Below are positions 6,367 to 52,930 of a stretch of 64,000 bases of DNA, in pieces. Source of the stretch: Patescibacteria group bacterium (GTDB taxonomy: Bacteria; Patescibacteriota; Microgenomatia; Levybacterales; UBA12049). The translations under genes were made by a program, and so were the position numbers. Where the stretch lies: positions 11,629 to 75,628 of the forward strand of contig JBBTVD010000020.1 of the NCBI GenBank assembly GCA_038063415.1, in the 5' to 3' direction. The notes beneath the pieces are model-generated. The model did no database searches and was not told where the DNA came from. It worked only from the letters and a program-made list of their open reading frames with translations. The first letter of the stretch is position 1; the number at the start of each line of letters is the position of its first letter.

Positions 6367-6394
6367 CGTAACATATATAGGCTATAATAGCCTC

Positions 6395-12004: not shown

Positions 12005-12010
12005 ATGGTA

Positions 12011-15524: not shown

Positions 15525-15528
15525 ATAA

Positions 15529-15948: not shown

Positions 15949-15952
15949 AGGT

Positions 15953-37071: not shown

Positions 37072-37131
37072 ACGCTTTAGTATAGCATAGCGCTTGACAG
37101 GGACATGTTTGTGTTATAACATAATTATATT

Positions 37132-37371: not shown

Positions 37372-37757
37372 ATTATTTGACTCCACAACAAGTTTTGGCA
37401 ATTCATGATGCTGTCATCAAGCGGACAGGTGGTTCTCACGGCTTGCGTGATGTAGGGCTTTTGGAATCAGCTGTCTACCGTCCACAGGCAAGTTATGATG
37501 GAGGGGATCTCTATCCGACACTTTTTGAAAAGGCTGCTGCTTTGTTCCATTCATTACTTAAAAATCATCCCTTTGTTGACGGCAACAAACGCACATCGTT
37601 GGCTTCTGCTGGATTATTTTTGCAGATAAATAACTTGCAATTAGTGAATACACATGAGAAGGAGCTGGAGTTTGCTCTGAAGGTAGAGAATGCAAGTTTG
37701 ACGTTTGAGGAAATAACTCTTTGGTTTAAGCAAAATACAAAAAAGTTATCTACATAA
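37368..37757 (+). CDS. doc: Doc (death-on-curing) toxin, Fic/Doc family
   Basis: Canonical Doc motif 'HPFVDGNKRT'. 129 aa. Confidence 0.8.
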   Translation: MNYLTPQQVLAIHDAVIKRTGGSHGLRDVGLLESAVYRPQASYDGGDLYPTLFEKAAALFHSLLKNHPFVDGNKRTSLASAGLFLQINNLQLVNTHEKELEFALKVENASLTFEEITLWFKQNTKKLST

Positions 37758-40288: not shown

Positions 40289-40305
40289 AATGGTGAGTTT
40301 TACGG
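40254..40305. repeat. motif-1 copy a (promoter-like 5' flanking repeat, core 'GTTAGAAyTyTTTACGCACArAAT...')
   Basis: Aligned by eye with the copies at 43054, 47186, 48584 and 51004. Confidence 0.6.
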
Positions 40306-40381
40306 CCCCATATTGAATACTAACTAGATTTTATCCTTTAATGTTTTAATTGTGCTATAAATAATGTAAAATACACTTCTT

Positions 40382-41134
40382 ATGGCACGACCAGAAGGAA
40401 ATCCTATTGAAGGTTTAAGAAAGCTTATTCACGCAGCTTTTATGGAAGTAGTTCGTTCTTTTGCAGGGATTCTTGCATCTCTAAAAGTGCAAAAGAGGAA
40501 ACGCAGGATGTTCGTTATTTCTAGTAGTATAGGATTTGGCATTACCTATATATTATTTCTTCTTACCTATGGAATTCTCCCCCAATTTGATCGAACAAAT
40601 GTAAGACTGCCTGTATTCTGCGAAGGGACTCAAGGCGACCTTACGATACCTTCTCGATTGAGATATGCATTGCCTAATGGAGAGATTGGTATATTGATAA
40701 AGAGTAACGCTGAAACTGCTGTTGTAGCCACTATTGATACAAGTAATCCATCTGATGCAAGCACGGTCTTTGTGGTAAGCAAAGATGGCAATAAAATGCT
40801 GAGAACGATGCATTTTGAGAACGATGTTATTAGTGCCGCTATCGATGAGGGAATTGTTTACATTTTCAATGACAAGTTAGGGTATCTTCTGGACGAACAT
40901 ACTGGCGAGGATGAAAAAACATTTCTTAAAATAGATAACTATGGTGGTCTTTCCCAATCTAATAACCCCATTCTTCCATTTGGTTCTGATGGTTATTGGT
41001 ATATGGAAACGACTGGTATCATCTCAAGTTGGCATATTGATGGGAAAGTCAAATCACGACCTCGTTTGGTGTTTAATGGCATTGCGCGAGGTTGTTTTAT
41101 ATCAGGTGAGACTGGTCAGGTTATTAACCTCTGA
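40382..41134 (+). CDS. membrane protein with a C-terminal soluble domain (paralogue A, 250 aa)
   Basis: TM 'FVISSSIGFGITYILFLLTYGIL'. From 'NGEIGILIKSNAET' onward it is identical to 44454..45266. The N-terminal ~100 aa are only ~65% identical. Confidence 0.5.
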   Translation: MARPEGNPIEGLRKLIHAAFMEVVRSFAGILASLKVQKRKRRMFVISSSIGFGITYILFLLTYGILPQFDRTNVRLPVFCEGTQGDLTIPSRLRYALPNGEIGILIKSNAETAVVATIDTSNPSDASTVFVVSKDGNKMLRTMHFENDVISAAIDEGIVYIFNDKLGYLLDEHTGEDEKTFLKIDNYGGLSQSNNPILPFGSDGYWYMETTGIISSWHIDGKVKSRPRLVFNGIARGCFISGETGQVINL

Positions 41135-41192
41135 GAAGTAATTATGCATTCACTTGAAAAGCCCATAGTTTTATGATAAGATTTACGACTCT

Positions 41193-42548
41193 ATGGCGAG
41201 AGTAGATCATGAATCAGGAAGAACCAGTGTACTCGATCTAAATCGAGCAAAAGCAGTTGGATTCTTGGATTATAACTTGAGAGGACAAAGACATAAAACT
41301 TCAGTCATGCATGATTGGCGTGATTTTTTGGCAAGTGGAAGGACCGGAGGTTATCTTGAATTACCTACAGGCGCAGATAAGACCATTGTAGCTGAATTTG
41401 TGGCACTTGGTCTGAAGACAATTGTTACCTCATCAACAAGAGAGACCTTAGATGAAACGAAAGCAACAATTGAGAGTCATGCAGGGGGGATTGAGGTAAC
41501 TAATTATGATGGCCGCCTAACAGGTGTAAGAGGAAATGTCATCAACACAACATTACCTTCCCTTGAAACATTATCAGATATTCCAGCGGTTGCAAAAGGA
41601 GTAGAATTGATCATTGTTGATGATGATACATTGGGAAGACAACGCCAGGAACTGTGGCGGAGATTTCCAAATGCGCTTTTTGTAGGACTTACCACTACAT
41701 CGGATTTTTCTCAACGTGATCAATTAGAACGCAGAGGGACGGTAGATCCGGGTGAACGTTGGACGGGAATGTTTAAAAATCGTATTCATAGGCTTAGCAG
41801 AGAGGAATTAGTGACAAAAGCTAAAATAGGAGAAAGAATAGCAGCAGCAACTGACCTTCCATCAATAAATAATGTCCTTGATGATATGGTAATAATGGTA
41901 CGCAAACGTAATCAAGCAGGATCAGTTTTAGATTTTTATAGAATGATGGCAGAACTCCTTCCAGACACGCTTCGTCTAGATAAACAAGAAATACTTTTAG
42001 AAGGAATAAGTAATACGAATGTTGATCAACAAAAAATGGGAAAAAAAGCCTTGTTGTTCCTTAATCTGAGATCTGTCTTTACCGTAGTACAACCGCATTT
42101 TTCTGCTGATGAAGAGACAAATGTAGAGATCTTGCAAACAGCATTATTGCAATGTTATGAGAAAATGAAAAATAAAAAAACAACTCCGCAACAAATATTA
42201 AGGGAAGGGGCGACTGCTTCATTGGTAAGAAAGCAAAGAGAGATGCAGGAGGTAATCGTCTATCGGGATACGAGAGAGCCCGATAGGGAAGATGGAAGAC
42301 AAGCTGATCTTATGAGCGCTGTTGAGGAGAGGGCTATGATTGCTTCTGTTTTAGGAGAACTTTCTGAAAGAGAAAGAAAAGTGATAGAATTACGTTTTGG
42401 GATTGGAACTAATGATTGGAGAGAACAAACTCTGGAGGAAGTCGGTCATGTAGTTGGTGTATCAGGGAGAAGAATTAGCGTAATTGAGACAAAAACATTA
42501 AGTAAGTTACGAGACACGAGATTAAGGAAGTTTCTCGATGATTTATGA
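41193..42548 (+). CDS. fusion protein: degenerate SF2-helicase/ResIII-like N-terminal domain plus C-terminal sigma-70 region-4 HTH (451 aa)
   Basis: N-terminal 'GYLELPTGADKTIVAEFVA' resembles a Walker A/motif I with Gly-to-Ala/Asp substitutions. 'ELIIVDDD' sits in the DExH position. C-terminal 'LSERERKVIELRFGIGTNDWREQTLEEVGHVVGVSGRRISVIETKTLSKLR' is a classic sigma-70 region 4. Sigma regions 2 and 3 are not evident. Confidence 0.5.
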   Translation: MARVDHESGRTSVLDLNRAKAVGFLDYNLRGQRHKTSVMHDWRDFLASGRTGGYLELPTGADKTIVAEFVALGLKTIVTSSTRETLDETKATIESHAGGIEVTNYDGRLTGVRGNVINTTLPSLETLSDIPAVAKGVELIIVDDDTLGRQRQELWRRFPNALFVGLTTTSDFSQRDQLERRGTVDPGERWTGMFKNRIHRLSREELVTKAKIGERIAAATDLPSINNVLDDMVIMVRKRNQAGSVLDFYRMMAELLPDTLRLDKQEILLEGISNTNVDQQKMGKKALLFLNLRSVFTVVQPHFSADEETNVEILQTALLQCYEKMKNKKTTPQQILREGATASLVRKQREMQEVIVYRDTREPDREDGRQADLMSAVEERAMIASVLGELSERERKVIELRFGIGTNDWREQTLEEVGHVVGVSGRRISVIETKTLSKLRDTRLRKFLDDL

Positions 42549-42643
42549 TAGTACAAAGGTTTGAGTCTGTCTACCGTGAGCCATATTTAGCTCATATTAT
42601 ATCAAGAAAGTCTTTATACAACTCTACTGATTTCTGCTAAAAT

Positions 42644-42955
42644 ATGGCAATGAGTCAAAAGTTGAGTTTCAAACCATCGGATATTGAAAAAGTATATAAA
42701 GATCAGGCCAAAAGATATTCAGGCTTTGCTAATGATTCTTTCAGTTGGCTTTATCTTGAAAAGCCATGGGGCACAACATCACCGCTATTTTTGAGACCAG
42801 TTGCTGATATTGTAAATGAAACAATAAAAGCGGGTTTTACTATAAAGTCATTAGAAGAACCCTCTGTTCCATTGGCAGCAAAAAAAGCAGACCATGTGAA
42901 TTATTTGAAGTATTCTTTTTGCCCATCACGAATTGCTGTCATTGCCACAAAATAA
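42644..42955 (+). CDS. small hypothetical protein (103 aa), possibly a remnant of a methyltransferase C-terminus
   Basis: ORF with a weak resemblance to the C-terminal beta strands of class I methyltransferases. Low confidence. Confidence 0.25.
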   Translation: MAMSQKLSFKPSDIEKVYKDQAKRYSGFANDSFSWLYLEKPWGTTSPLFLRPVADIVNETIKAGFTIKSLEEPSVPLAAKKADHVNYLKYSFCPSRIAVIATK

Positions 42956-43053
42956 AAATGATGAATCAACCACAAAGCTTGTTGGTGCAACGTAGGGGGC
43001 TAAGGAGTTTTGTTGCAATGATCCAAATGCTCATGAGAAGAGTATATCATTAA

Positions 43054-43100
43054 GTTAGAATTTTTTACGCACAGAATCAGGAGTTTAAATTCCAAGCTTT
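43054..43100. repeat. motif-1 copy b (upstream of the Fic gene)
   Basis: 'GTTAGAATTTTTTACGCACAGAATCAGGAGTTTAAATTCCAAGCTTT'. Confidence 0.6.
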
Positions 43101-43198
43101 ATATGAATTACTTTAGGGATGGTGTTAAATGTTAAAATGGCAATTGTTAAATGTTCGATAGTGTGATATTCTCTTTTTAGCTTCAAATTTAGCTAAAT

Positions 43199-44371
43199 AT
43201 GTTAAATATTGAAAATAAAATGAGTAAGTATTCATACGACAAATTATTACTAGTACAGCCCAAATTTAACTCTACTTTGACAGATTTAATTATTGAGTTA
43301 GATTATTTAAGGAAAAAGCCTTTAGGTGGTAGCACTCCACCTCGGATATTTTTCCAATTAAAAAGTATATTTCATACCTTAGAAAGTATTGGGTCTGCAC
43401 GTATTGAAGGAAATCATACGACTATTGCTGAGTTTATTGAAACGAAGTTAGAGAAACATAAGAGTAAAGACGAAAAAATAAATGAAATTCAAAATATAGA
43501 AGCAGCAATGGATTTTATTGATAATTCTATAGATGCAACACCTATAAATGACGCTTTCATACGTGAGTTACATAAGAGAGTTGTGGGTGGTTTATCTCCT
43601 CATGAAGAAGGAGATACTCATCCTGGTGAATATCGAAAAGGAAATATTAAAATTGCTGGTACACAACATGTACCCCCAGAATCTCTGCAAGTCATTGATT
43701 ATATGCAGGAGTTAAATGGATTTATTAATAATGACGATCCACATAAATATGATCTGCTTAAAATTGCATTAGCACATCATCGTTTTGTATGGATTCACCC
43801 CTTTGGAAATGGTAATGGTCGTACTGTTAGATTACTTACCTACGCACAACTTATAAAGTCAGGTTTTAATGTTCACGTAGGAAGAATTATTAACCCTACT
43901 GCAATTTTTTGTAGCGATCGAGAGAAATATTATTCGTATTTATCGAAAGCAGATGCAGGGGATAGTACTGGCCTCTTAAATTGGAGTGAGTATGTGTTAT
44001 CTGGATTGAAACAGGAGATAGAAAAAATTGACCATTTGTTAGATTATAGTTATTTATCTGAAAAAATATTACTTCCTGCCATTAGTTTCTCACTTGATAG
44101 AAAAGTTATTACTCAGCTTGAGGCGGATATTTTAAAAATTGCGGTTAAAAAACAATTATTTCAAGCATCAGACTTAAAAGAACTATTTCCCAACACAATT
44201 CCGGCTCAAGTTTCTCGTTATATCAGTCGTTTGAAAGAAAAAAAGATGATTGCTCCGGAAAATAAAAATAGTAGAAAGTACCTTATAGATTTTGGTAATA
44301 ATTACTTACTTCGGGGTGTTATTAAAATGTTAGATCAACATGGTTTTTTACCTCTTAAAGGAGAGTCTTAA
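43199..44371 (+). CDS. Fic family protein, class II (N-terminal inhibitory helix), with a C-terminal winged-helix-like domain (390 aa)
   Basis: Fic motif 'HPFGNGNGRTVRLL', in which Asn occupies the usual D/E position. An inhibitory-helix motif (S/T)xxxE(G/N) is present as 'SARIEGN'. Confidence 0.75.
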   Translation: MLNIENKMSKYSYDKLLLVQPKFNSTLTDLIIELDYLRKKPLGGSTPPRIFFQLKSIFHTLESIGSARIEGNHTTIAEFIETKLEKHKSKDEKINEIQNIEAAMDFIDNSIDATPINDAFIRELHKRVVGGLSPHEEGDTHPGEYRKGNIKIAGTQHVPPESLQVIDYMQELNGFINNDDPHKYDLLKIALAHHRFVWIHPFGNGNGRTVRLLTYAQLIKSGFNVHVGRIINPTAIFCSDREKYYSYLSKADAGDSTGLLNWSEYVLSGLKQEIEKIDHLLDYSYLSEKILLPAISFSLDRKVITQLEADILKIAVKKQLFQASDLKELFPNTIPAQVSRYISRLKEKKMIAPENKNSRKYLIDFGNNYLLRGVIKMLDQHGFLPLKGES

Positions 44372-44374
44372 AAG

Positions 44375-44428
44375 GTTCGAGTCCGTCCGTCGTAAAGCTA
44401 GAGTTCGAGGCTGAAATGTTGGGCAGGA
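44375..44428. repeat. motif-2 copy A (3' flanking repeat 'GGTTCGAGTCCGTCCGyCGTrAGGCTAGAGTTCGAGGCTrAAT...')
   Basis: Starts 4 nt after the Fic stop codon. Aligned with the copies at 48506 and 52507. Confidence 0.6.
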
Positions 44429-44453
44429 CAAACGTCTGCTATACTTATTAAGG

Positions 44454-45266
44454 ATGACGCCTTTACAAATAGGACTTGGTACCAGTATATTTATCAATCT
44501 AATAATTGGGCTACTCTATATCGCTATCCTACAAGAGCCAGGTTCAGCATATTATTTTTTTCTCTTTCTTACTTTCTTCAGCGGTTCCTTTCTTGCAGGA
44601 ATTCTTGCATCTCTAAAAGCGCAAAAAAGGAAACGCAGGGAGTTCGTTGTTTCTAGTAGTATAGGGTTTGGCATTACCTGTATGTTATTTCTTATTACCT
44701 ATGGAGTTCTTCCCCAATTTGATCGAACAAATGTTAGATTACCTGTATTCTGCGAAGGAAATCAAGGCGACCTTAAGATACCTTTTCAATTGAGATACAC
44801 TTTACCCAATGGAGAGATTGGTATATTGATAAAGAGTAACGCTGAAACTGCTGTTGTAGCCACTATTGATACAAGTAATCCATCTGATGCAAGCACGGTC
44901 TTTGTGGTAAGCAAAGATGGCAATAAAATGCTGAGAACGATGCATTTTGAGAACGATGTTATTAGTGCCGCTATCGATGAGGGAATTGTTTACATTTTCA
45001 ATGACAAGTTAGGGTATCTTCTGGACGAACATACTGGCGAGGATGAAAAAACATTTCTTAAAATAGATAACTATGGTGGTCTTTCCCAATCTAATAACCC
45101 CATTCTTCCATTTGGTTCTGATGGTTATTGGTATATGGAAACGACTGGTATCATCTCAAGTTGGCATATTGATGGGAAAGTCAAATCACGACCTCGTTTG
45201 GTGTTTAATGGCATTGCGCGAGGTTGTTTTATATCAGGTGAGACTGGTCAGGTTATTAACCTCTGA
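44454..45266 (+). CDS. membrane protein paralogue B (270 aa); N-terminus diverged from 40382..41134, remainder identical
   Basis: See 40382..41134. Confidence 0.5.
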   Translation: MTPLQIGLGTSIFINLIIGLLYIAILQEPGSAYYFFLFLTFFSGSFLAGILASLKAQKRKRREFVVSSSIGFGITCMLFLITYGVLPQFDRTNVRLPVFCEGNQGDLKIPFQLRYTLPNGEIGILIKSNAETAVVATIDTSNPSDASTVFVVSKDGNKMLRTMHFENDVISAAIDEGIVYIFNDKLGYLLDEHTGEDEKTFLKIDNYGGLSQSNNPILPFGSDGYWYMETTGIISSWHIDGKVKSRPRLVFNGIARGCFISGETGQVINL

Positions 45267-45324
45267 GAAGTAATTATGCATTCACTTGAAAAGCCCATAG
45301 TTTTATGATAAGATTTACGACTCT

Positions 45325-46680
45325 ATGGCGAGAGTAGATCATGAATCAGGAAGAACCAGTGTACTCGATCTAAATCGAGCAAAAGCAGTTGGATTCTTGG
45401 ATTATAACTTGAGAGGACAAAGACATAAAACTTCAGTCATGCATGATTGGCGTGATTTTTTGGCAAGTGGAAGGACCGGAGGTTATCTTGAATTACCTAC
45501 AGGCGCAGATAAGACCATTGTAGCTGAATTTGTGGCACTTGGTCTGAAGACAATTGTTACCTCATCAACAAGAGAGACCTTAGATGAAACGAAAGCAACA
45601 ATTGAGAGTCATGCAGGGGGGATTGAGGTAACTAATTATGATGGCCGCCTAACAGGTGTAAGAGGAAATGTCATCAACACAACATTACCTTCCCTTGAAA
45701 CATTATCAGATATTCCAGCGGTTGCAAAAGGAGTAGAATTGATCATTGTTGATGATGATACATTGGGAAGACAACGCCAGGAACTGTGGCGGAGATTTCC
45801 AAATGCGCTTTTTGTAGGACTTACCACTACATCGGATTTTTCTCAACGTGATCAATTAGAACGCAGAGGGACGGTAGATCCGGGTGAACGTTGGACGGGA
45901 ATGTTTAAAAATCGTATTCATAGGCTTAGCAGAGAGGAATTAGTGACAAAAGCTAAAATAGGAGAAAGAATAGCAGCAGCAACTGACCTTCCATCAATAA
46001 ATAATGTCCTTGATGATATGGTAATAATGGTACGCAAACGTAATCAAGCAGGATCAGTTTTAGATTTTTATAGAATGATGGCAGAACTCCTTCCAGACAC
46101 GCTTCGTCTAGATAAACAAGAAATACTTTTAGAAGGAATAAGTAATACGAATGTTGATCAACAAAAAATGGGAAAAAAAGCCTTGTTGTTCCTTAATCTG
46201 AGATCTGTCTTTACCGTAGTACAACCGCATTTTTCTGCTGATGAAGAGACAAATGTAGAGATCTTGCAAACAGCATTATTGCAATGTTATGAGAAAATGA
46301 AAAATAAAAAAACAACTCCGCAACAAATATTAAGGGAAGGGGCGACTGCTTCATTGGTAAGAAAGCAAAGAGAGATGCAGGAGGTAATCGTCTATCGGGA
46401 TACGAGAGAGCCCGATAGGGAAGATGGAAGACAAGCTGATCTTATGAGCGCTGTTGAGGAGAGGGCTATGATTGCTTCTGTTTTAGGAGAACTTTCTGAA
46501 AGAGAAAGAAAAGTGATAGAATTACGTTTTGGGATTGGAACTAATGATTGGAGAGAACAAACTCTGGAGGAAGTCGGTCATGTAGTTGGTGTATCAGGGA
46601 GAAGAATTAGCGTAATTGAGACAAAAACATTAAGTAAGTTACGAGACACGAGATTAAGGAAGTTTCTCGATGATTTATGA
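45325..46680 (+). CDS. helicase-like/sigma-70 region-4 fusion protein, second identical copy
   Basis: Identical 451-aa translation to 41193..42548. Confidence 0.5.
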   Translation: MARVDHESGRTSVLDLNRAKAVGFLDYNLRGQRHKTSVMHDWRDFLASGRTGGYLELPTGADKTIVAEFVALGLKTIVTSSTRETLDETKATIESHAGGIEVTNYDGRLTGVRGNVINTTLPSLETLSDIPAVAKGVELIIVDDDTLGRQRQELWRRFPNALFVGLTTTSDFSQRDQLERRGTVDPGERWTGMFKNRIHRLSREELVTKAKIGERIAAATDLPSINNVLDDMVIMVRKRNQAGSVLDFYRMMAELLPDTLRLDKQEILLEGISNTNVDQQKMGKKALLFLNLRSVFTVVQPHFSADEETNVEILQTALLQCYEKMKNKKTTPQQILREGATASLVRKQREMQEVIVYRDTREPDREDGRQADLMSAVEERAMIASVLGELSERERKVIELRFGIGTNDWREQTLEEVGHVVGVSGRRISVIETKTLSKLRDTRLRKFLDDL

Positions 46681-46775
46681 TAGTACAAAGGTTTGAGTCT
46701 GTCTACCGTGAGCCATATTTAGCTCATATTATATCAAGAAAGTCTTTATACAACTCTACTGATTTCTGCTAAAAT

Positions 46776-47087
46776 ATGGCAATGAGTCAAAAGTTGAGTT
46801 TCAAACCATCGGATATTGAAAAAGTATATAAAGATCAGGCCAAAAGATATTCAGGCTTTGCTAATGATTCTTTCAGTTGGCTTTATCTTGAAAAGCCATG
46901 GGGCACAACATCACCGCTATTTTTGAGACCAGTTGCTGATATTGTAAATGAAACAATAAAAGCGGGTTTTACTATAAAGTCATTAGAAGAACCCTCTGTT
47001 CCATTGGCAGCAAAAAAAGCAGACCATGTGAATTATTTGAAGTATTCTTTTTGCCCATCACGAATTGCTGTCATTGCCACAAAATAA
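46776..47087 (+). CDS. small hypothetical protein, second identical copy
   Basis: Identical to 42644..42955. Confidence 0.25.
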   Translation: MAMSQKLSFKPSDIEKVYKDQAKRYSGFANDSFSWLYLEKPWGTTSPLFLRPVADIVNETIKAGFTIKSLEEPSVPLAAKKADHVNYLKYSFCPSRIAVIATK

Positions 47088-47185
47088 AAATGATGAATCA
47101 ACCACAAAGCTTGTTGGTGCAACGTAGGGGGCTAAGGAGTTTTGTTGCAATGATCCAAATGCTCATGAGAAGAGTATATCATTAA

Positions 47186-47232
47186 GTTAGAATTTTTTAC
47201 GCACAGAATCAGGAGTTTAAATTCCAAGCTTT
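47186..47232. repeat. motif-1 copy c (duplicate of copy b inside unit 2)
   Basis: Offset 4132 from copy b. Confidence 0.6.
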
Positions 47233-47330
47233 ATATGAATTACTTTAGGGATGGTGTTAAATGTTAAAATGGCAATTGTTAAATGTTCGATAGTGTGATA
47301 TTCTCTTTTTAGCTTCAAATTTAGCTAAAT

Positions 47331-48503
47331 ATGTTAAATATTGAAAATAAAATGAGTAAGTATTCATACGACAAATTATTACTAGTACAGCCCAAATTTA
47401 ACTCTACTTTGACAGATTTAATTATTGAGTTAGATTATTTAAGGAAAAAGCCTTTAGGTGGTAGCACTCCACCTCGGATATTTTTCCAATTAAAAAGTAT
47501 ATTTCATACCTTAGAAAGTATTGGGTCTGCACGTATTGAAGGAAATCATACGACTATTGCTGAGTTTATTGAAACGAAGTTAGAGAAACATAAGAGTAAA
47601 GACGAAAAAATAAATGAAATTCAAAATATAGAAGCAGCAATGGATTTTATTGATAATTCTATAGATGCAACACCTATAAATGACGCTTTCATACGTGAGT
47701 TACATAAGAGAGTTGTGGGTGGTTTATCTCCTCATGAAGAAGGAGATACTCATCCTGGTGAATATCGAAAAGGAAATATTAAAATTGCTGGTACACAACA
47801 TGTACCCCCAGAATCTCTGCAAGTCATTGATTATATGCAGGAGTTAAATGGATTTATTAATAATGACGATCCACATAAATATGATCTGCTTAAAATTGCA
47901 TTAGCACATCATCGTTTTGTATGGATTCACCCCTTTGGAAATGGTAATGGTCGTACTGTTAGATTACTTACCTACGCACAACTTATAAAGTCAGGTTTTA
48001 ATGTTCACGTAGGAAGAATTATTAACCCTACTGCAATTTTTTGTAGCGATCGAGAGAAATATTATTCGTATTTATCGAAAGCAGATGCAGGGGATAGTAC
48101 TGGCCTCTTAAATTGGAGTGAGTATGTGTTATCTGGATTGAAACAGGAGATAGAAAAAATTGACCATTTGTTAGATTATAGTTATTTATCTGAAAAAATA
48201 TTACTTCCTGCCATTAGTTTCTCACTTGATAGAAAAGTTATTACTCAGCTTGAGGCGGATATTTTAAAAATTGCGGTTAAAAAACAATTATTTCAAGCAT
48301 CAGACTTAAAAGAACTATTTCCCAACACAATTCCGGCTCAAGTTTCTCGTTATATCAGTCGTTTGAAAGAAAAAAAGATGATTGCTCCGGAAAATAAAAA
48401 TAGTAGAAAGTACCTTATAGATTTTGGTAATAATTACTTACTTCGGGGTGTTATTAAAATGTTAGATCAACATGGGTTTTTGCCTCTTAAAGGTGAGTCC
48501 TAA
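47331..48503 (+). CDS. Fic family protein, class II, second copy
   Basis: Identical 390-aa translation to 43199..44371. A few silent or near-terminal nucleotide differences occur in the last ~30 bp. Confidence 0.75.
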   Translation: MLNIENKMSKYSYDKLLLVQPKFNSTLTDLIIELDYLRKKPLGGSTPPRIFFQLKSIFHTLESIGSARIEGNHTTIAEFIETKLEKHKSKDEKINEIQNIEAAMDFIDNSIDATPINDAFIRELHKRVVGGLSPHEEGDTHPGEYRKGNIKIAGTQHVPPESLQVIDYMQELNGFINNDDPHKYDLLKIALAHHRFVWIHPFGNGNGRTVRLLTYAQLIKSGFNVHVGRIINPTAIFCSDREKYYSYLSKADAGDSTGLLNWSEYVLSGLKQEIEKIDHLLDYSYLSEKILLPAISFSLDRKVITQLEADILKIAVKKQLFQASDLKELFPNTIPAQVSRYISRLKEKKMIAPENKNSRKYLIDFGNNYLLRGVIKMLDQHGFLPLKGES

Positions 48504-48505
48504 AA

Positions 48506-48560
48506 GGTTCGATTCTATCTGCCGTGAGGCTAGAATTCGAGGATAAATTATTGGGCAAGG
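48506..48560. repeat. motif-2 copy B
   Basis: 'GGTTCGATTCTATCTGCCGTGAGGCTAGAATTCGAGGATAAATTATTGGGCAAGG'. Confidence 0.6.
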
Positions 48561-48583
48561 GTACGCGCGCGGCGTTAGAACTC

Positions 48584-48620
48584 TTTACGCACAAAATTGT
48601 GAGTTTTATATTCCAGCTTT
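48584..48620. repeat. motif-1 copy d (best sigma70 match: -35 TTTACG, 17-bp spacer, -10 TATATT), not followed by a gene
   Basis: 'GTTAGAACTCTTTACGCACAAAATTGTGAGTTTTATATTCCAGCTTT' contains the palindrome CACAA-AA-TTGTG. Confidence 0.55.
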
Positions 48621-48700
48621 TATTCAAATCATTCAAGAAGACATGTACTTCAGCTTGTGTAAGGCATATTCATATACGGTGCAATACGAAGCTAATAAGC

Positions 48701-49069
48701 CTATTTAATTACGCGGACTTGTCTGTGTTGATCGAGTTCATCTGCGTTAGTGATAGCCCATTGCTGTAATCCTTGTAAAGGTTCAACGAGACTAATTCCG
48801 AGCTTTGTTAGTGAATAGGAAACCTTTGTAACGTTCCCTTTTATGACTTTACGTTCAATAAAGCCATCTGTTTCGAGCTTGCGTAACGTTTGCGTCAACA
48901 TTTTTTGAGAAATACATTCAATTTTTCGTTTGAGTTCCCCAAAATAATAGGGCTGTTCCGAAAGTGCTGCTAGAACCAAAATAGTCCACTTATCTGCAAT
49001 TTTCATAAGTGCATAGCGGGTAATGCATACTGCGGAAAATATATTAAATTTAGAAGTTGGTTTCATCAC
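48701..49069 (-). CDS. HxlR-family winged-helix transcriptional regulator
   Basis: 'CISQKMLTQTLRKLETDGFIERKVIKGNVTKVSYSLTKLG' is the typical HxlR core. It is divergent from a reductase gene. Confidence 0.65.
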   Translation of the reverse strand: MMKPTSKFNIFSAVCITRYALMKIADKWTILVLAALSEQPYYFGELKRKIECISQKMLTQTLRKLETDGFIERKVIKGNVTKVSYSLTKLGISLVEPLQGLQQWAITNADELDQHRQVRVIK

Positions 49070-49148
49070 TAGTTACCTTTTAGTGCCTTCTTGAAAAAAA
49101 GAAGGTAGTCACTTATAGTAACTATATGATAACACAAGGAGACTGTAT

Positions 49149-49814
49149 ATGAAAATAGCAATTATTGGAGCGGGTAATATCGGTGGATATCTCGCAACAC
49201 AGTTAAGTAAAGTTGGCCATGGAGTCACTATCTGTTTTACACGAAATGAAGAAAAGCTTAAAGAACGAGCTAGTAAAATTGGCAATGGTGTTCAGGGCTC
49301 TTCTGTACGTGAAGCGGTAAAAAAGAGTGAGCTAGTGATTTTATCTACCAGGTGGGAAGATATTGATGCCGCCTTGTTACAAGCGAAAGATTTATCAGAC
49401 AAAATAGTCATAGATGCAACAAATCAATATGGAGCAACAGGTCTTATAGATATTGGTACAAGCGTCGCAGTATTTAACCAAGCTCGTATGCCCGGAGTAA
49501 AACTCGTCAGGACTTTTAATATGTTCTTTGCAACGTATCTGTCCGAAGTTGGTCGTGGTCAACATCGACCGGTCGCTATGTTTTTTGCTTCCGAAGATAA
49601 ATACGCAAAAGAAGTTGCCACCCAGATTATAGCTGACATAGGTTTTGAACCAGTATATTTAGGTGGTTTGGATGTTGCTAAGTTTATTGAGATGCCGAAT
49701 GGAATGCTTGTCGGAAAAATATATCGACCCAAACAGGCACAAGCAATTGCTAAAGCTGTACAACAAGGTGATCTTGCTTTGGCTTCTCAACTGGCTAAAA
49801 ATGTAAGCGAGTAG
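49149..49814 (+). CDS. NADP-binding oxidoreductase, F420-dependent NADP reductase (Npd)-like family
   Basis: Rossmann motif 'MKIAIIGAGNIGGYLATQL'. About 220 aa, typical of PF03807-type proteins. Confidence 0.55.
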   Translation: MKIAIIGAGNIGGYLATQLSKVGHGVTICFTRNEEKLKERASKIGNGVQGSSVREAVKKSELVILSTRWEDIDAALLQAKDLSDKIVIDATNQYGATGLIDIGTSVAVFNQARMPGVKLVRTFNMFFATYLSEVGRGQHRPVAMFFASEDKYAKEVATQIIADIGFEPVYLGGLDVAKFIEMPNGMLVGKIYRPKQAQAIAKAVQQGDLALASQLAKNVSE

Positions 49815-49897
49815 CCGCATTTTCTTTTAGGAAAAGGAGATCTTGTCCGCAGTTCGTAATTAGTGGTAGTAATTTTTCGGTCGTATATAGATACTTT

Positions 49898-50845
49898 TTA
49901 GAAACTATACCTGCCATTTACTGCGAGTTTAGCACCGTTAACAATTGCGGTTGTTCCATCATATTTATATACGAATGTACGTCCTGCTGAATCAGCTGCC
50001 ACAGAAAGAGCAAAAGAGCTTGAGGTATTTTGCCCAGAGCCCGTTTCAAACTGATCTTTTGCTGCAACCGGAAGATTAATTTGCGTATATCCTGACCCTC
50101 CGGAGTTAGCATCATATGTGAAATCAACCCAATAGAACATTACGTTCCCTAAAATGAAAAACGTTGCTTTGTTAGTTGTTGGATTATTAGTAAAAGCACC
50201 TCCACCCGAAGTATAAGTTGGTGTGAAATTAAAGGTTCCAGGATAGCCTTGTGGACTTGCTTCATAAGAATAGTAGGGATTTGTTATTGCCGAATTGGCA
50301 AGAGAATAATCATTATTAGCAAAAAGAGTTACAGTTGTATCGGTTGAATAGCTACTTGAGAGTACAACACCATAATAAGTTGTAGAATTATTAGTAAGTT
50401 TCACACGTGTACCTTTAGTAAAGATTGCTGTTCGGTCAGTACCTGATATTTTGAAGCTATTTGCAGAAACATATGTCCATGTATCATTCGCTGTAGTCCA
50501 ACCATCTTGATTAGCTAAAGACAATGTTGCTCCAGAACTACTTCTGGATATAGTCAAACCATTGCCCGCATTAACATCTTTGAGCCAAGTTACTTGAGTT
50601 AAACCGGTATCGCAGCTTGCCCCCGGTGACACTAGTGTGACGATTCCGCGAGAGTCTTCGCATGCATTAATCAGACTACTATCACCCCAACTTCCAAAAC
50701 TAGCATGTACCAAACGAACAAAGTAGGGTCCAAAAAGTGTAAACGTAATTCCGAAGAGAATCACAAGAAGAGGAATACCAAAAGAGAAAATAAGACGGGT
50801 TCGCTTAACGATATGAAGGTATGATGTAATCTTAAGACGGTTCAT
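49898..50845 (-). CDS. membrane-anchored Ser/Thr/Gly/Asn-rich secreted hypothetical protein
   Basis: TM 'LIFSFGIPLLVILFGITFTLFG'. Low-complexity beta-rich body. Confidence 0.4.
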   Translation of the reverse strand: MNRLKITSYLHIVKRTRLIFSFGIPLLVILFGITFTLFGPYFVRLVHASFGSWGDSSLINACEDSRGIVTLVSPGASCDTGLTQVTWLKDVNAGNGLTISRSSSGATLSLANQDGWTTANDTWTYVSANSFKISGTDRTAIFTKGTRVKLTNNSTTYYGVVLSSSYSTDTTVTLFANNDYSLANSAITNPYYSYEASPQGYPGTFNFTPTYTSGGGAFTNNPTTNKATFFILGNVMFYWVDFTYDANSGGSGYTQINLPVAAKDQFETGSGQNTSSSFALSVAADSAGRTFVYKYDGTTAIVNGAKLAVNGRYSF

Positions 50846-51003
50846 ATTATATTTATTAACTTAATTCAATCTAATAATAAATGTAACTGTAAGTCAATAG
50901 GAAAAATAAATTTGTACATTGTGATAAGGACGTTCGATTCCATTTATCCGTTAGAATATTTTAGCAATTTTTGAGGCTAAAAATGAAATAAAACCGTGGC
51001 AGG

Positions 51004-51065
51004 TTCTCGTGAAGGACATTAGAATTTTTACGCACAAAATCCTGATTTTTAGATTTCCAGCTTTT
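51004..51065. repeat. motif-1 copy e (upstream of the 453-aa gene; -35 TTTACG, 17-bp spacer, -10 TAGATT)
   Basis: 'CTCGTGAAGGACATTAGAATTTTTACGCACAAAATCCTGATTTTTAGATTTCCAGCTTTT'. Confidence 0.6.
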
Positions 51066-51099
51066 AGATTAAAATTTGTTACTATCAGCCATGATATAA

Positions 51100-52461
51100 T
51101 TGAAATATATGAGTGAGATACCTCGTCCTACAGACGTAACCCCTACAGACTATCAGAGGGAGATAGTATCATTATTAGGATCAGATGGTTCTGAACAGAA
51201 TAAATATGAGCTAACTCTTGTGAACAGGCCAGATTGGCTTCCTCCTGAGAGTGGGGTATATTTTTTTCAGGATTCAGGAAAATGTAGCCAAATTCATACT
51301 ATACAGAGCGAGGATAATATAGAATATCAGGTTTCTTCTAATGCTGATCCGACCTTTCCTGGTTTCCAGGTTGGTGTGCCATGGTCAATTGGCAGAAGAT
51401 TAGCACCCAACGATCGTATATTTCTCAATAGCTCTTCATTCGTTGTCGTGCATACACCTGACGTTGAACCTATTCTCTATGATATTTCTCCTGAAGAAGT
51501 AGCTGTACCACCTCAAAGGAGTGAAAGAACATTCTCTTCTAAAGATATGATGTCTGGAATCCTTTCCAGAGAGATTTTTACTCAGACTTCACTGCCTGGT
51601 GTTGTGCGAGATCCACTAGTTGTAGCTGCAATGATTGCTGAGGAAAAAGAACGATCCAAGAGGGAGAGTAGGGGCGCGAGACCAGAAGCTCAATTTACTG
51701 CCATAGAGCCAGCGGTGGTCACTGAAGTAGATCTCAATGCTCCAAGGACAAAAATACTTAGTATCACCAAAGACTTCGATGGAAGTGCTATGGGGTTCCA
51801 TATATATATAATCACTGTTGCTGGTGAGAATAAAAGAGAGCTTAGAGTCCCTAATACTGGTGTATTTATACACATTGATGAGGATACGTCTCTTGTACGC
51901 AGACTTCAAACTTCATCATTATCACCACACATCTCAACCGAAGATGCTCCTACAGAATATATTGTTATGTTAGGTAAAGAACTCTCTGATGGTGAAGATT
52001 GGATGCGTGAGTGGCAGTTAAAGAATGAGCTTGCTTCTTCTGCAAGTGAACAATCTGGTACCTCATCAGCGCTTTTAGTTCAAAAGAGTGTAACACCAAA
52101 TGATCCGGCTCATCCTCAAGAAGCAAGAGTTGTTCCAGCGCAACTATCCTTTGGAAGCATTAGCTTTACTGGTCAATTTCTTGCAAGACATATAGGTGGC
52201 TCATATAGACAAATGATTTTAGAGGCACTTTTTGAAGCTAGCATGCCAGGGTATGAATCGACCCTATATAAGGCAAAGGACATACTGGAAGAGGTTATAA
52301 GAAACGCTTTACAAGGTGAAGCTGAAAGAATTTTTTCTGATGAGCAGAGTCCGCAGCCGGTAGCTAGAGGGTTTACATCAGTAATTGCAGAAGTAAAGAA
52401 AATTGTTGAAGGAAATAGAAGGCAAAAAGCTTGGGATGATCAGGTTGGAATGTATAGATAG
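51100..52461 (+). CDS. hypothetical protein (453 aa), bracketed by motif-1 and motif-2 like the Fic genes
   Basis: ORF only. Confidence 0.4.
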   Translation: MKYMSEIPRPTDVTPTDYQREIVSLLGSDGSEQNKYELTLVNRPDWLPPESGVYFFQDSGKCSQIHTIQSEDNIEYQVSSNADPTFPGFQVGVPWSIGRRLAPNDRIFLNSSSFVVVHTPDVEPILYDISPEEVAVPPQRSERTFSSKDMMSGILSREIFTQTSLPGVVRDPLVVAAMIAEEKERSKRESRGARPEAQFTAIEPAVVTEVDLNAPRTKILSITKDFDGSAMGFHIYIITVAGENKRELRVPNTGVFIHIDEDTSLVRRLQTSSLSPHISTEDAPTEYIVMLGKELSDGEDWMREWQLKNELASSASEQSGTSSALLVQKSVTPNDPAHPQEARVVPAQLSFGSISFTGQFLARHIGGSYRQMILEALFEASMPGYESTLYKAKDILEEVIRNALQGEAERIFSDEQSPQPVARGFTSVIAEVKKIVEGNRRQKAWDDQVGMYR

Positions 52462-52506
52462 ATACGTTTTCTTCCATTGTTTTTCGATGTTAGAAAGGGG
52501 TTCGAG

Positions 52507-52548
52507 TCCGTCCGCCGTGAGGCTAGAGTGCGAGGCTAAATTTATCAG
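52507..52548. repeat. motif-2 copy C, directly abutting the 3' end of tRNA-Trp
   Basis: 'GGGGTTCGAGTCCGTCCGCCGTGAGGCTAGAGTGCGAGGCTAAATTTATCAG'. Confidence 0.6.
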
Positions 52549-52620
52549 CAGGGGCGCACAGATTCGAACTGTGAAAAGCAGTTTTGGAGACTGCTGTGAT
52601 AGCCATTTCACCACACCCCT
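52549..52620 (-). tRNA. tRNA-Trp (anticodon CCA)
   Basis: Minus-strand fold: acceptor AGGGGTG/CGCCCCT (one G.U pair), D arm GTGA-AATGGCTA-TCAC, anticodon arm GCAGT-CTCCAAA-ACTGC, 4-nt variable loop, T arm CACAG-TTCGAAT-CTGTG, discriminator G. No CCA is encoded. Confidence 0.8.
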
Positions 52621-52628
52621 ATACAACG

Positions 52629-52640
52629 TTAGATTATACT
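52629..52640 (-). promoter_or_regulatory. -10-like 'TAGTATAAT' upstream of tRNA-Trp (minus strand)
   Basis: The minus strand reads 'tttttagtataatctaacgttgtat' immediately 5' of the tRNA. Confidence 0.35.
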
Positions 52641-52676
52641 AAAAAAGCGTATGGATCGCTAGTTTAACCATACGCT
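52641..52676 (-). terminator. rho-independent terminator downstream of rpmG (9-bp stem agcgtatgg/ccatacgct, then 6 U on the minus strand)
   Basis: Plus strand 'aaaaaagcgtatggatcgctagtttaaccatacgct'. Confidence 0.65.
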
Positions 52677-52703
52677 ATTTGCTATACCCCAACCTTTGCA
52701 TTA

Positions 52704-52880
52704 TTACTTTAACTTATCTACTTGCTTATGCTCAGTTACTTTGCGGCAGTGGCTACAAAACTTGTTGAGCTTCAATTTCTCAGGATTTTCCATTTTGTTT
52801 TTCTCGGTAACATAGTTTCTGTTTTTACAAACAGAACAAGTAAGTCCAATTTTGATTCGGTGTTCGCCTTTTTTTGCCAT
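52704..52880 (-). CDS. rpmG: 50S ribosomal protein L33 (58 aa; absent from the supplied ORF track because it is under 60 aa)
   Basis: Manual translation of the minus strand gives 'MAKKGEHRIKIGLTCSVCKNRNYVTEKNKMENPEKLKLNKFCSHCRKVTEHKQVDKLK'. This has the zinc-ribbon L33 pattern (C..C...C..C and RNY.T.KNK). Confidence 0.8.
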   Translation of the reverse strand: MAKKGEHRIKIGLTCSVCKNRNYVTEKNKMENPEKLKLNKFCSHCRKVTEHKQVDKLK

Positions 52881-52930
52881 ATGGACAATTATACACTATT
52901 TGAGGCAGGATTGAAAGAGTTCTTTACGTG

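Follow-up and report, generated by a model that had tools for sequence, protein, structure and literature searches.

A repeated element beside tRNA-Trp as the probable DNA end of small gene cassettes in Saccharimonadales

In a stretch of DNA of 64,000 nucleotides (the window), a repeated element, m2, is found just after stop codons and, in one copy, next to a tRNA-Trp gene. Is this element an RNA, a 3′ UTR that belongs to a gene family, or the end of a DNA unit? To address this, the window was compared with four related lineages of Saccharimonadales, which are tiny-genome 'candidate phyla radiation' bacteria. The explanation that we favor, with a probability of about two in three, is that m2 is a conserved DNA end (recombination-site arm) of small gene cassettes which insert site-specifically at the sequence CAGGGGC of the Saccharimonadales tRNA-Trp gene. 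On this reading, the element is neither an RNA nor the 3′ UTR of a gene.

Results

The m2 copies and the array

A reading made from the letters of the window alone (the sequence-only reading) had listed three m2 copies, and a consensus scan, shuffled sequences and a repeat finder confirmed that these are real and far beyond chance. The degenerate consensus matches 44374-44416 (2 mismatches) and 52499-52541 (0 mismatches) and had no match in 100 dinucleotide shuffles; the repeat finder supplied the third copy (B) beyond these two matches and placed the copies at 44374-44427 (A), 48506-48559 (B) and 52499-52552 (C), with pairwise identities of 76-81%. An extra copy (D), degenerate and with an insertion, lies just upstream of the m1 element of cassette E4. 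It gives a weak profile match over 50931-50981 (E = 1.6), the remainder being read by eye from the sequence, and is followed by a core-like 7-mer and m1 in the same order as in the other composites. First-half-only m2 copies occur 7 nt past the stop of the 451-aa genes. All m1 and m2 profile matches of the 64-kb window fall within one array (Table 1), in which the GC content is 0.32-0.40 as compared to 0.41-0.43 outside. The right flank of the array is syntenic with relatives; the left content is not.

Table 1. Features of the cassette array and the adjoining tRNA gene (window coordinates)
Feature	Position	Strand	Remark
Whole cassette array	40250-52555	+	degenerate left core to intact core inside tRNA-Trp
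Degenerate core TAGGCTC	40250-40256	+	left array boundary, followed by m1
Cassette E1	40257-44423	+	itself composite, m1 to m2 copy A; also holds 250-aa protein, 451-aa protein, 103-aa ORF
m1 of E1	40257-40308		
Partial m2 of E1	42555-42580		first half only
m1′ of E1	43053-43101		
Fic of E1	43199-44371		
m2 copy A	44374-44423	+	this assembly only
Degenerate core CAGGACA	44424-44430	+	4/7
Cassette E2	44431-48555	+	second tandem-duplication unit; no m1 at left end; also holds 270-aa membrane protein, 451-aa protein with sigma-70 region 4, 103-aa ORF
Partial m2 of E2	46687-46712		first half only
m1′ of E2	47185-47233		
SoFic-like Fic of E2	47331-48503		
m2 copy B	48506-48555	+	with core-like 7-mer and next m1, 120-bp composite junction 48502-48622
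Degenerate core CAAGGGT	48556-48562	+	5/7
Cassette E3	48563-50999	+	m1 to m2 copy D
m1 of E3	48563-48623		
HxlR regulator of E3	48701-49069	-	
NADP/F420-type oxidoreductase of E3	49149-49814		
315-aa ORF of E3	49898-50845	-	
m2 copy D	50931-50999	+	degenerate, internal insertion; right end of E3
Degenerate core CAGGTTC	51000-51006	+	5/7; between m2 copy D and m1 of E4
Cassette E4	51007-52548	+	m1 to m2 copy C
m1 of E4	51007-51066		
453-aa ORF of E4	51100-52461		no Pfam, NCBIfam, PADLOC, PHROG or PDB sequence match
m2 copy C	52499-52548	+	includes 7-nt spacer; right end of E4
Intact core CAGGGGC	52549-52555	+	reverse complement GCCCCTG, tRNA positions 67-73; sole intact core in array
tRNA-Trp, CCA anticodon	52548-52620	-	ARAGORN; Rfam 58.6 bits

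The copies are indeed close to stop codons, but the distances that had been given (4 nt for the Fic genes and 45 nt for the 453-aa gene) need correction: the GGTTCG of m2 begins 2 nt past the Fic stops, which end at 44371 and 48503, and 37 nt past the 453-aa ORF stop at 52461. Copy C had been described as ending exactly at the end of tRNA-Trp, whereas a 7-nt spacer separates the two; the likeness among the m2 copies extends through this spacer to CAGGGGC, the 7 nt with which the tRNA ends. Units of m1, gene and m2 of about 1.4-1.5 kb, also part of the sequence-only reading, do exist (43053-44427 and 51007-52552).

Copies A and B cannot be counted as independent, since each marks the 3′ end of one unit of a 4.1-kb tandem duplication (40451-44425 and 44584-48557, 98.9% identical), and two of the three copies thus represent one duplication. 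This duplication is recent. Its centre of 3,668 bp is 100% identical, and all 48 differences between the units are located at their two ends, 16 of them in or beside m2. In four further assemblies from this groundwater population, the 4.1-kb unit is single and has a B-type m2. The A-type m2 and the junction 44426-44583 are confined to this record, and strain mixing during assembly may be the source of copy A.

A 7-nt core shared with tRNA-Trp

We propose that the CAGGGGC sequence at the tRNA end is the crossover region. The internal cores of the window have 2-3 mismatches each, and the window array is largely fossil since only the tRNA-adjacent core is intact. In L026, L015 and L007 the 7-mer borders every cassette. 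In L026, GCCCCTG is present eight times between 5043 and 11112, all on one strand and all intergenic, the first copy being at the 3′ end of tRNA-Trp; the rest of the 19.4 kb has no copy, and 0.28 copies are expected by chance (Poisson P = 7e-10). The eight cores therefore define seven cassettes of 0.6-1.5 kb directly after tRNA-Trp. L015 has five cores (P = 1e-5) with three m2...m1 units, and L007 has three (P = 0.01). Across all junctions, irrespective of arm type, the 7-mer is the only shared element, and sequence homology between units ends exactly at the core on both sides. A shared core of only 7 bp is short, and this, like the mismatches in the internal window cores, counts against the favored explanation.

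The spacing around the core is fixed. In all window-type copies the m2 boxes lie to the left of the core, one at 50 nt (GGTTCGAG in copy C) and one at 22 nt. To the right, GTTRGAAC is found at 11 nt in 11 junctions and at 40 nt in 3 junctions that bear a 29-nt insert; at the left array boundary the core-like 7-mer has a GTTAGAAC box at a distance of 11 nt. The T-loop DNA of tRNA-Trp itself yields a ATTCGAAC box, 6 nt right of the core. The composite junction at copy B is 80% identical to L001 (6362-6483) and 79% to L002 (1551-1663).

Cassettes in related lineages

About 20 units were seen in the five lineages, with lengths of 0.6-4 kb, m2 at the tRNA-proximal end and often m1 at the other end. 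As in the window, m2 adjoins tRNA-Trp in L002; copy C together with the tRNA shows 92.7% identity to L002 over 124 nt, whereas core and flanking proteins are only 43-62% identical. Cassette number and content around tRNA-Trp vary among the relatives. The syntenic relatives L006 and L013 have empty sites, with tRNA-Trp present and no m1, m2 or repeated core. Several junctions in L026 are devoid of m2 or m1 and display other arm types (m3, m4) or no recognizable arm beside the tRNA, which indicates that these arms are not strictly required for the presence of a unit. The fmt sequence of the window is closer to that of L005 and L007 (59-60% identity) than to that of the L002/L015/L026 clade (41-43%), and the canonical m1 and m2 are common to the window and this latter clade; the distribution of m1 and m2 does not follow the protein tree. 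The cassette architecture with a tRNA-associated entry point, as suggested by the sequence-only reading, is supported by the same m1 and m2 ends around unrelated cargo directly after tRNA-Trp in L002, L015 and L026, by the 7-nt tRNA end that borders every unit, and by the variation between lineages.

Discussion

Is m2 an RNA or part of a gene?

The T-loop-like 11-mer GGTTCGAGTCC could suggest that m2 is a tRNA-like or other RNA element, such as a small RNA or a signal for 3′ processing or stability, and the tRNA-adjacent copy can pair with the 3′ half of the tRNA over 13-15 bp (z -1.5 to -1.8 as DNA, -2.3 as RNA). This possibility is very improbable. Structure prediction on aligned copies, proposed earlier as a check, gave no covariation and no consensus structure for 10 copies: for the plus strand RNAalifold reached -3.6 kcal/mol and 0 compensatory pairs, and the minus strand yielded nothing. 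Single m2 sequences, including the junction copies away from the tRNA, fold no better than shuffles, and an Rfam search gave no match at E ≤ 10. The flanks had already been judged not to complete a tRNA fold, in agreement with the lack of a tRNA or tmRNA call and the mere 2 base pairs that can form in the would-be T stem. Moreover, m2 keeps one orientation with respect to the tRNA, not with respect to neighboring genes. The T-loop-like box matches tRNA-Trp at 17/21 positions, but other tRNAs match at 14-16/21, and the box cannot be assigned to any tRNA as its remnant.

As a fallback, the sequence-only reading had kept the possibility of a 3′ UTR conserved within a paralogous family. We reject this explanation because a Fic ortholog with 72% identity (L025) has no m2 and the cargo is unrelated and oriented either way, in addition to the lack of covariation and structure. 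The L025 gene has its own 5′ region in common with the window copy and carries neither m1′ nor m2; the homology starts just past m1′ and stops at the stop codon. Hence m2 does not belong to the Fic gene. The cargo differs everywhere and includes a SoFic-type Fic, HxlR with an oxidoreductase, ArsR with a cation-efflux transporter, GNAT and HAD proteins, an FAD monooxygenase, an ECF sigma factor and HSP20. The position of m2 just after stop codons is incidental.

Alternatively, m1 could act as promoter or operator and m2 as terminator or some other regulatory module. After natural transformation, homologous recombination between such conserved modules would then have shuffled the genes that carry them into a hot spot. 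A TTTACG-17 nt-TATATT sequence in m1 (48584-48612) matches a sigma-70 consensus scan and recurs in the L001 and L002 copies, and m2 follows stop codons in the window. However, promoter-like matches are no more frequent than in shuffled sequences (48 vs 41.5 ± 6.3), and by hand count the gene beside m1 points away from it in four of ten units and the other way in six, which places m2 upstream of gene starts. There is no hairpin with a T-run, no fitting terminator and no inverted repeat in m2, a 7-mer common to all junctions is too short for homologous recombination, and the profile search revealed no m1 or m2 copies outside arrays in 64 kb. We consider such a modular regulatory origin improbable.

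Where is the recombinase?

Neither the arrays nor their flanks yielded a recombinase gene, whether of the tyrosine, serine or another type, and this too speaks against the favored explanation. The search covered about 40 kb left and 11 kb right of the window array; in L026 it extended about 8 kb past the final core and, on the side of the tRNA, about 5 kb. L015, L007 and L002 were covered as well. The sole transposase found belongs to an unrelated DDE-type insertion sequence (9825-10847). As an alternative, the units could be remnants of integrase-carrying islands or prophages in tRNA-Trp, similar to tycheposons, that later lost the integrase and most of their other genes by deletion and left m2 and m1 as functionless attL and attR. 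The site at a tRNA 3′ end, the stacking and the degenerate window cores resemble older tycheposon integrations (10.1101/2020.12.28.424599), and L014 has a displaced and interrupted tRNA-Trp pseudogene. Against such decay, which we regard as unlikely though the least so of the alternatives, the approximately 20 units of five lineages contain no integrase fragment, even though most keep both ends, and the cores in L026 and L015 are exact. The 0.6-1.9 kb units carry no phage genes, and their accessory genes are ordinary and intact. The tRNA-derived repeat is 7 nt instead of the usual ca. 40 nt, and three scans of viral collections gave no full-length relative with an m2-core-m1 site and an integrase.

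With m2 as a recombination-site arm, each insertion would set a cassette between two cores, with m1 or another left arm away from the tRNA and m2 beside it. Any further cassette that enters at the regenerated site next to the tRNA would shift older cassettes outward, and stacking would give rise to m2-core-m1 composite junctions of about 120 bp that resemble attP sites. Two sequences of m2 are putative protein-binding boxes, the T-loop-like GGTTCGAG at 50 nt and GTTCGAG at 22 nt from the core, and the inverted GTTRGAAC, 11 nt across the core, would occupy the place where the tRNA offers its own T-loop DNA. The T-loop-like box of m2 is probably a protein-binding box that mimics tRNA T-loop DNA. 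The process would be conservative site-specific recombination, with a recombinase or accessory factor bound to the boxes and the enzyme encoded elsewhere and acting in trans. We infer both this enzyme and present-day mobility, since no recombinase gene turned up in or near any array. Neither an excised circle, nor an empty-site allele within one population, nor an identical cassette in two places was seen, and the case for mobility is therefore built on comparative anatomy.

Comparison with known systems

The arrays hint at an integron-like gathering of accessory genes, which is not yet described for Saccharimonadales. In integrons and CALINs, which lack an integrase in the latter case, small units of unrelated function, most of them with one or two genes, are arrayed with a repeated recombination site between them. 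Their recombinase is encoded outside the cassettes, the most recent cassette should be the one closest to the entry site, and toxin and acetyltransferase-type cargo is common. The arrays described here are similar in their small unrelated units, repeated site, cassettes without a recombinase, expected place of the newest cassette and type of cargo. Unlike integrons, they have no attC-type imperfect palindrome and no adjacent intI, attI or Pc promoter; the cargo runs both ways, often with its own upstream region, and the entry site is the end of a tRNA gene.

The CIMEs of Streptococcus thermophilus are integrase-less, cis-mobilizable, att-bounded elements that are moved in trans by the integrase of a related element. 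Similarly, the units of the present arrays are att-flanked and integrase-less, are stacked in tandem at one chromosomal site and would need an enzyme in trans. CIMEs occur in small numbers and go back to integrative conjugative elements known from the same species, whereas no parent element is known for the present units, which are far smaller and occur in greater number. The pdif modules of Acinetobacter plasmids are Xer-dependent, with 28-bp XerC/XerD sites in alternating orientation. They share with the cassettes a small cargo, short bounding recombination sites and a recombinase encoded elsewhere; the cassettes differ by direct repeats of a 7-nt core and by asymmetric arms without resemblance to dif.

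Tycheposons possess their own tyrosine recombinase and partial-tRNA repeats of about 40 nt (Hackl et al., bioRxiv 10.1101/2020.12.28.424599). Like these and other tRNA-targeting islands, the cassettes are inserted at a tRNA end, newcomers would push older elements outward, and stacks of cargo are split by tRNA-end repeats; as in tycheposons, adaptive or defence cargo sits in a small streamlined genome (10.1101/2020.12.28.424599). In the arrays described here no unit has a recombinase and the tRNA-derived repeat is only 7 nt long; the conserved parts are instead the element-specific arms (m2 of ca. 50-80 nt and m1 of ca. 60 nt), which enclose mostly one or two genes per unit.

Motif-2 copies in the window

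We consider it probable, at odds of roughly two in three, that motif-2 (m2) is the recombination-site arm of gene cassettes associated with tRNA-Trp. This element of ca. 50 bp marks the tRNA-proximal end of the cassettes, and motif-1 (m1) often the opposite end. The sequence-only reading had listed three copies of m2, here called A, B and C, and these are real: its consensus matches at 44374-44416 and 52499-52541 with no match in 100 shuffled sequences, and all three copies were grouped by a repeat finder. The count needs correction, however, as A and B are not independent, both lying within a 4.1-kb tandem duplication, and as a degenerate copy D and the copies consisting of the first half of m2 only had been overlooked. 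Coordinates are collected in the table.

Self-comparison of the window showed that the two duplicated segments share 98.9% identity. Their centre comprises 3,668 bp at 100% identity; all 48 differences are found at the two ends, which diverge by 14-21%, and 16 of them lie in or adjoin m2. In another four assemblies of this groundwater site/population there is a single unit with a B-type m2, and the A-type m2 with the junction at 44426-44583 is present in this record only. The duplication may stem from gene conversion, from two cassette variants that recombined, or from a strain chimera in the assembly.

Positions of the features discussed (window positions unless a locus is named)
Feature	Position	Remark
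m2 copy A	44374-44427	
m2 copy B	48506-48559	
m2 copy C	52499-52552	
m2 copy D, degenerate	50931-50999	directly upstream of the m1 copy at 51007
m2, first half only	42555-42580 and 46687-46712	7 nt past the stop of the 451-aa gene
Duplicated segments	40451-44425 and 44584-48557	
Degenerate core TAGGCTC	40250	
Degenerate core CAGGACA	44424	
Degenerate core CAAGGGT	48556	
Degenerate core CAGGTTC	51000	
tRNA-Trp	52548-52620, minus	then tRNA-Thr, tRNA-Tyr, tRNA-Thr
rpmG and tRNA-Trp	52548-52930	
Composite junctions, 120 bp (m2 then m1)	48502-48622; L001 6362-6483; L002	
451-aa gene	41193-42548 and 45325-46680	
248-aa ORF	39446-40192, minus	
Fic/Doc and MazE-like pair	ca. 37100-37700 (L021, the corresponding locus, 11684-12309)	just outside the array
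nusG and rplA	14709-16552, minus	
DDE (rve) transposase	9825-10847, minus	
Direct repeat, 118 bp	3320-3437 and 4262-4379	92% identity
L026 cores (GCCCCTG)	5043, 5812, 6514, 7432, 8032, 9522, 10311, 11112	one strand; 5043 is the tRNA-Trp 3' end
L026 cassettes		226-aa ORF; HAD hydrolase; 241-aa ORF; GNAT; ArsR and cation-efflux transporter; 153-aa ORF; second HAD hydrolase
L015 m2...m1 units		FAD monooxygenase; ECF sigma factor and partner; 99-aa ORF
L015 unit with 192-aa gene	13203-14412	between two cores
L014 second tRNA-Trp-like sequence	ca. 15770-15850	right after the intact tRNA-Trp
L025 block bracketed by CAGGCCT	2949-7213	

Arrays and empty sites in related genomes

Exact-pattern scans returned one locus each from the genome collection (L001, a Candidatus Saccharimonadales genome bin, with L026 as its extended contig) and the metagenome collection (L002, a soil contig); both loci are Saccharimonadales-like. 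To the right of the window array lie a tRNA cluster, rpmG, an M50 protease gene, fmt, def and a Wzy-like gene, and this synteny is kept through the M50 protease in all relatives fetched; the left side of the window is non-syntenic. In L002, m2 abuts tRNA-Trp in the same place as in the window, and the segment of m2 and tRNA is 92.7% identical over 124 nt as compared to only 43-62% for the flanking proteins. A second m2 in L002 is directly followed by m1, and such composite junctions of 120 bp are also found in the window and in L001.

The boundaries of the units coincide with a 7-nt core, CAGGGGC (reverse complement GCCCCTG), which is formed by the last 7 nt of the tRNA-Trp gene. The array begins at these nucleotides in the window, L002, L015, L026 and L007. 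On L026 the core occurs eight times on one strand, with 0.28 copies expected (P = 7e-10); all eight copies are intergenic, no further one is present in 19.4 kb, and they delimit seven cassettes of 0.6-1.5 kb each. Five cores are found in L015, where three m2...m1 units with different cargo follow tRNA-Trp, and three in L007. Gene order and tRNA-Trp are conserved in L006 and L013, yet m1, m2 and the repeated core were not found there. The content of the occupied sites (window, L002, L015, L026 and L007) differs in each, and L006 and L013 are empty. These relatives bear out the cassette architecture with a tRNA-associated entry point that the sequence-only reading had proposed, as core-bounded units with differing cargo start at tRNA-Trp; the cassette number, for which it had suggested a comparison of this neighbourhood, ranges from none in L006 and L013 to seven in L026.

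By def and fmt, L002, L015 and L026 form one clade and the window is nearer to L005 and L007. Despite this, the window shares the canonical m1 and m2 ends and the tRNA-Trp type with the L002/L015/L026 clade; the distribution of the arrays departs from the protein tree. One tRNA-Trp sequence type (AGGGGTGTGGTGAAATGG...) is common to all genomes with canonical m1 and m2 (window, L002, L015 and L026), and the def and fmt genes of the window are closer to those of genomes carrying the other type. The tRNA-Trp gene itself may travel with the platform. In L014, a second tRNA-Trp-like sequence of another type, with an insertion of ca. 30 nt, directly follows the intact gene. The arrangement suggests that an incoming element took the place of the resident tRNA gene.

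Two further loci show variant ends. In L015, a unit with a gene for a 192-aa protein lies between two cores and carries a palindromic hairpin, GACCGTTTTGAAACGGTC, on both sides instead of m1 and m2; a homolog of its product (38% identity) adjoins tRNA-Trp in L025. The 3' end of tRNA-Trp in L025 reads CAGGCCT, and the same 7-mer recurs in an intergenic position 4.3 kb away, the pair bracketing a Fic ortholog and six other small genes. The region may represent a block of cassettes that uses another core, for which the statistics are weak.

Core and anatomy of the junctions

The architecture of the arrays is observed directly, as are their core, spacing and variability. In L026, L015 and L007, each unit has CAGGGGC at its two ends, and homology between units ends exactly at the core, on the left as well as on the right. 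In window orientation, a junction consists of the m2 box GGTTCGAG 50 nt to the left of the core, AGTTCGAG 22 nt to the left, the core itself and an inverted GTTRGAAC box on the right. In 11 junctions, 11 nt separate the right-hand box from the core, and in three junctions that have a 29-nt insert the distance is 40 nt. For the T-loop DNA of tRNA-Trp (ATTCGAAC) it is 6 nt. In view of this phased spacing, a GTTCNAR box is present in several copies, the T-loop-like start of m2 being one of them, and the equivalent box on the chromosomal side is supplied by the T-loop DNA of tRNA-Trp itself.

The arms on the two sides of the core are of different types. The right-hand arm is m1 (TCGTGAACGAYGTTAGAAC...) or else of a second type, m3; to the left there is m2, a shorter arm type, m4, or no recognisable arm. 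The L015-type m2 is enlarged to ca. 80 nt by an insertion and retains the boxes and the GAGGCTA and GCTAAA blocks. The window array is composed of four units, two of them composite, and its sole intact core is the tRNA-adjacent one. Since the internal cores are degenerate, the local array is a fossil that was later reshaped by the 4.1-kb duplication.

Alternative explanations for m2 and m1

A structured RNA encoded by m2, for which the sequence-only reading had suggested structure prediction and a covariation check, is not supported. Single-sequence folds of the three copies on both strands were no more stable than those of shuffled sequences, except when the real tRNA was included, and RNAalifold gave neither a consensus structure nor a compensatory pair for 10 copies, whichever strand was used. 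Rfam gave no family at m2 under the gathering threshold, and none across 40000-52560 with E relaxed to 10; ARAGORN called no tRNA at m2. As for a tRNA-Trp remnant, the box is T-arm-like and matches tRNA-Trp best, at 17 of 21 positions, but other tRNAs match at 14-16 of 21 and the box is not assignable to tRNA-Trp. An apparent lineage-specific covariation in L007 did not hold on comparison with other tRNAs. For m1 as a decayed tRNA-Trp, comparison by eye left the GAAC box alone in common, and this reading was rejected.

A hairpin resembling attC was considered for the recombination site. There are no inverted repeats in 38-56 kb, and the composite junctions folded inconsistently as DNA, with no advantage over shuffled sequences (z-scores of -2.0 to +0.15).

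A role in gene expression was examined in several forms. As a terminator or 3' UTR element, m2 should follow genes; it has no terminator-like site and no stable fold, and it lies upstream of gene starts in three units of L015, in the copies L001_b and L002_b and in window copy D. The gene beside m1 points away from it in four of 10 units and towards it in the other six, so m2 is found upstream of starts as often as downstream of stops. As to a promoter function of m1, only one copy matches the promoter consensus, and the region shows no enrichment of matches of this kind. The fallback offered in the sequence-only reading, a conserved 3' UTR of a paralogous family, fails on a Fic gene next to tRNA-Trp in L025. 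This ortholog is 72% identical to that of the window and lacks both m2 and m1', the m1 copy preceding the window Fic gene; the two genes share their own upstream region, with homology starting just past m1' and stopping at the stop codon.

Transposition as a MITE or insertion sequence does not fit the ends, as m1 is unrelated to m2 and the two do not form an inverted pair, one and the same 7-mer flanks the units throughout, and the arrays contain no transposase. The only transposase found in the window is of the DDE (rve) type with HTH domains and belongs to an insertion sequence that is unrelated to the array. For a phage or plasmid origin, the composite junction gave no BLAST match in phage or plasmid collections, and scans of viral collections with m2 or junction patterns were empty. 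A 23-nt match to m1 in the viral contig L020 lies inside a tail-fibre-like coding run with a partial profile match (E = 0.0055) and was treated as chance.

Cargo and neighbouring genes

The Fic protein of the window array matches the SoFic defence model at 5.7e-48. The array also encodes an HxlR regulator and an NADP/F420-type oxidoreductase, and several of its ORFs have no family match. The duplicated 451-aa protein combines an N-terminal P-loop/helicase-like part (ELPTGADKT, IIVDD) with sigma-70 region 4 at the C-terminus. Among named proteins it matches MzaA best, through the C-terminus alone; MzaA is the sigma factor of MZA, an anti-phage system. The 451-aa protein is encoded next to a membrane protein, a 103-aa ORF and the SoFic-like Fic, and together these four may form a defence module.

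The 248-aa ORF diverges from the array at its left edge, where an integron would have its integrase. It is conserved in other assemblies of the same population and gave no Pfam, NCBIfam, PADLOC, PHROG or PDB sequence match. Just outside the array, a small Fic/Doc protein and a MazE-like antitoxin are encoded beside two GNAT acetyltransferases and a DUF1801 gene; this neighbourhood is of accessory type and has no m1, m2 or cores. The window further harbors a 118-bp direct repeat. In many bacteria, tRNA-Trp directly precedes secE-nusG; here nusG and rplA are found on the same strand as rpmG and tRNA-Trp, ca. 36 kb away.

Recombinase, mobility and proposed mechanism

No recombinase gene was found in or near any array examined (ca. 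20 units). Pfam searches of nearly all window ORFs of at least 150 aa, with precomputed Pfam annotations for the others, revealed none, nor did Pfam, NCBIfam and PHROG scans of the array ORFs or the precomputed Pfam annotations of the relatives. Scans of the family-less array proteins of the window with NCBIfam, PADLOC and PHROG gave nothing relevant, as did a PDB sequence search with the 453-aa, 451-aa and 248-aa proteins. An excised circle, an empty allele within one population or an identical cassette at two sites was not seen. No instance of one cassette in two arrays was found; orthologs of the Fic gene (L025) and of the cation-efflux gene (L028) occur in contexts without m1 or m2.

The observations agree with conservative site-specific insertion at the 7-bp core derived from the tRNA-Trp end. 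The arms would be borne by the cassettes, m2 facing the tRNA and m1 or m3 lying at the distal end, and repeated insertion at the tRNA-proximal site would produce a stack with attP-like composite junctions. We infer this recombination chemistry, and likewise that the boxes serve as binding sites and that the enzyme is supplied in trans.

The array suggests an undescribed gene-capture platform in candidate-phyla-radiation bacteria, with a putative recombinase and putative ongoing mobility. More tentatively, at odds somewhat short of even, Saccharimonadales and perhaps other members of this radiation may possess a dedicated platform in which the 3' end of tRNA-Trp acts as an attI-like site. A recombinase acting in trans and reading T-loop-like GTTCGAG boxes would there stack integrase-less cassettes of one or two genes with conserved asymmetric ends, and so spread defence, metal-efflux and stress genes among distant lineages. 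Genomes of the candidate phyla radiation are ca. 1 Mb in size and have few recognised mobile elements. To our knowledge, the exchange of accessory genes among these bacteria is poorly understood, and a cassette array at one tRNA, if true, would offer a concrete and testable route of gene exchange for such tiny genomes. The cargo carried includes a SoFic-type defence gene, ArsR with a cation-efflux transporter, acetyltransferases, hydrolases and a sigma/anti-sigma pair. The short defined site, a 7-bp core with phased boxes, can serve as a lead to the missing recombinase and is a possible natural landing pad for the engineering of Saccharibacteria. In annotation, the T-loop-like motif should not be labelled a tRNA fragment or an RNA gene.

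Comparison with known systems

No description of the array or its sequences was found in the literature. Among described systems, the arrays come closest to tRNA-targeting islands that grow as stacks through successive integrations, above all the tycheposons. Islands of this kind share with the arrays the position at a tRNA 3' end, direct repeats derived from a portion of the tRNA, and the occurrence of occupied and empty sites; they encode their own integrase, unlike the units described here. Tycheposons carry a tyrosine recombinase, attachment sites of ca. 40 nt and partial tRNAs scattered through the island (10.1101/2020.12.28.424599). The ca. 20 units examined here have no recombinase, a tRNA-derived repeat of 7 nt instead of ca. 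40 nt, long, element-specific and asymmetric arms, and mostly one or two genes each.

Similar to integron cassettes, the units form an array of small cassettes of unrelated function. The attC site of integrons, an imperfect palindrome (R''-L''...L'-R'), folds in single-stranded form, and no such palindrome is present here. Integrons also have an adjacent intI gene, an attI site and a Pc promoter, whereas no intI gene adjoins the present arrays, which have rpmG and tRNA genes at one end and ordinary or unknown genes at the other. By analogy, the absence of a recombinase, the short repeat, the asymmetric arms and the small size of the units would place these arrays nearer, in spirit, to integron cassettes, to the integrase-less attC clusters known as CALINs and to integrase-less cis-mobilizable elements (CIMEs).
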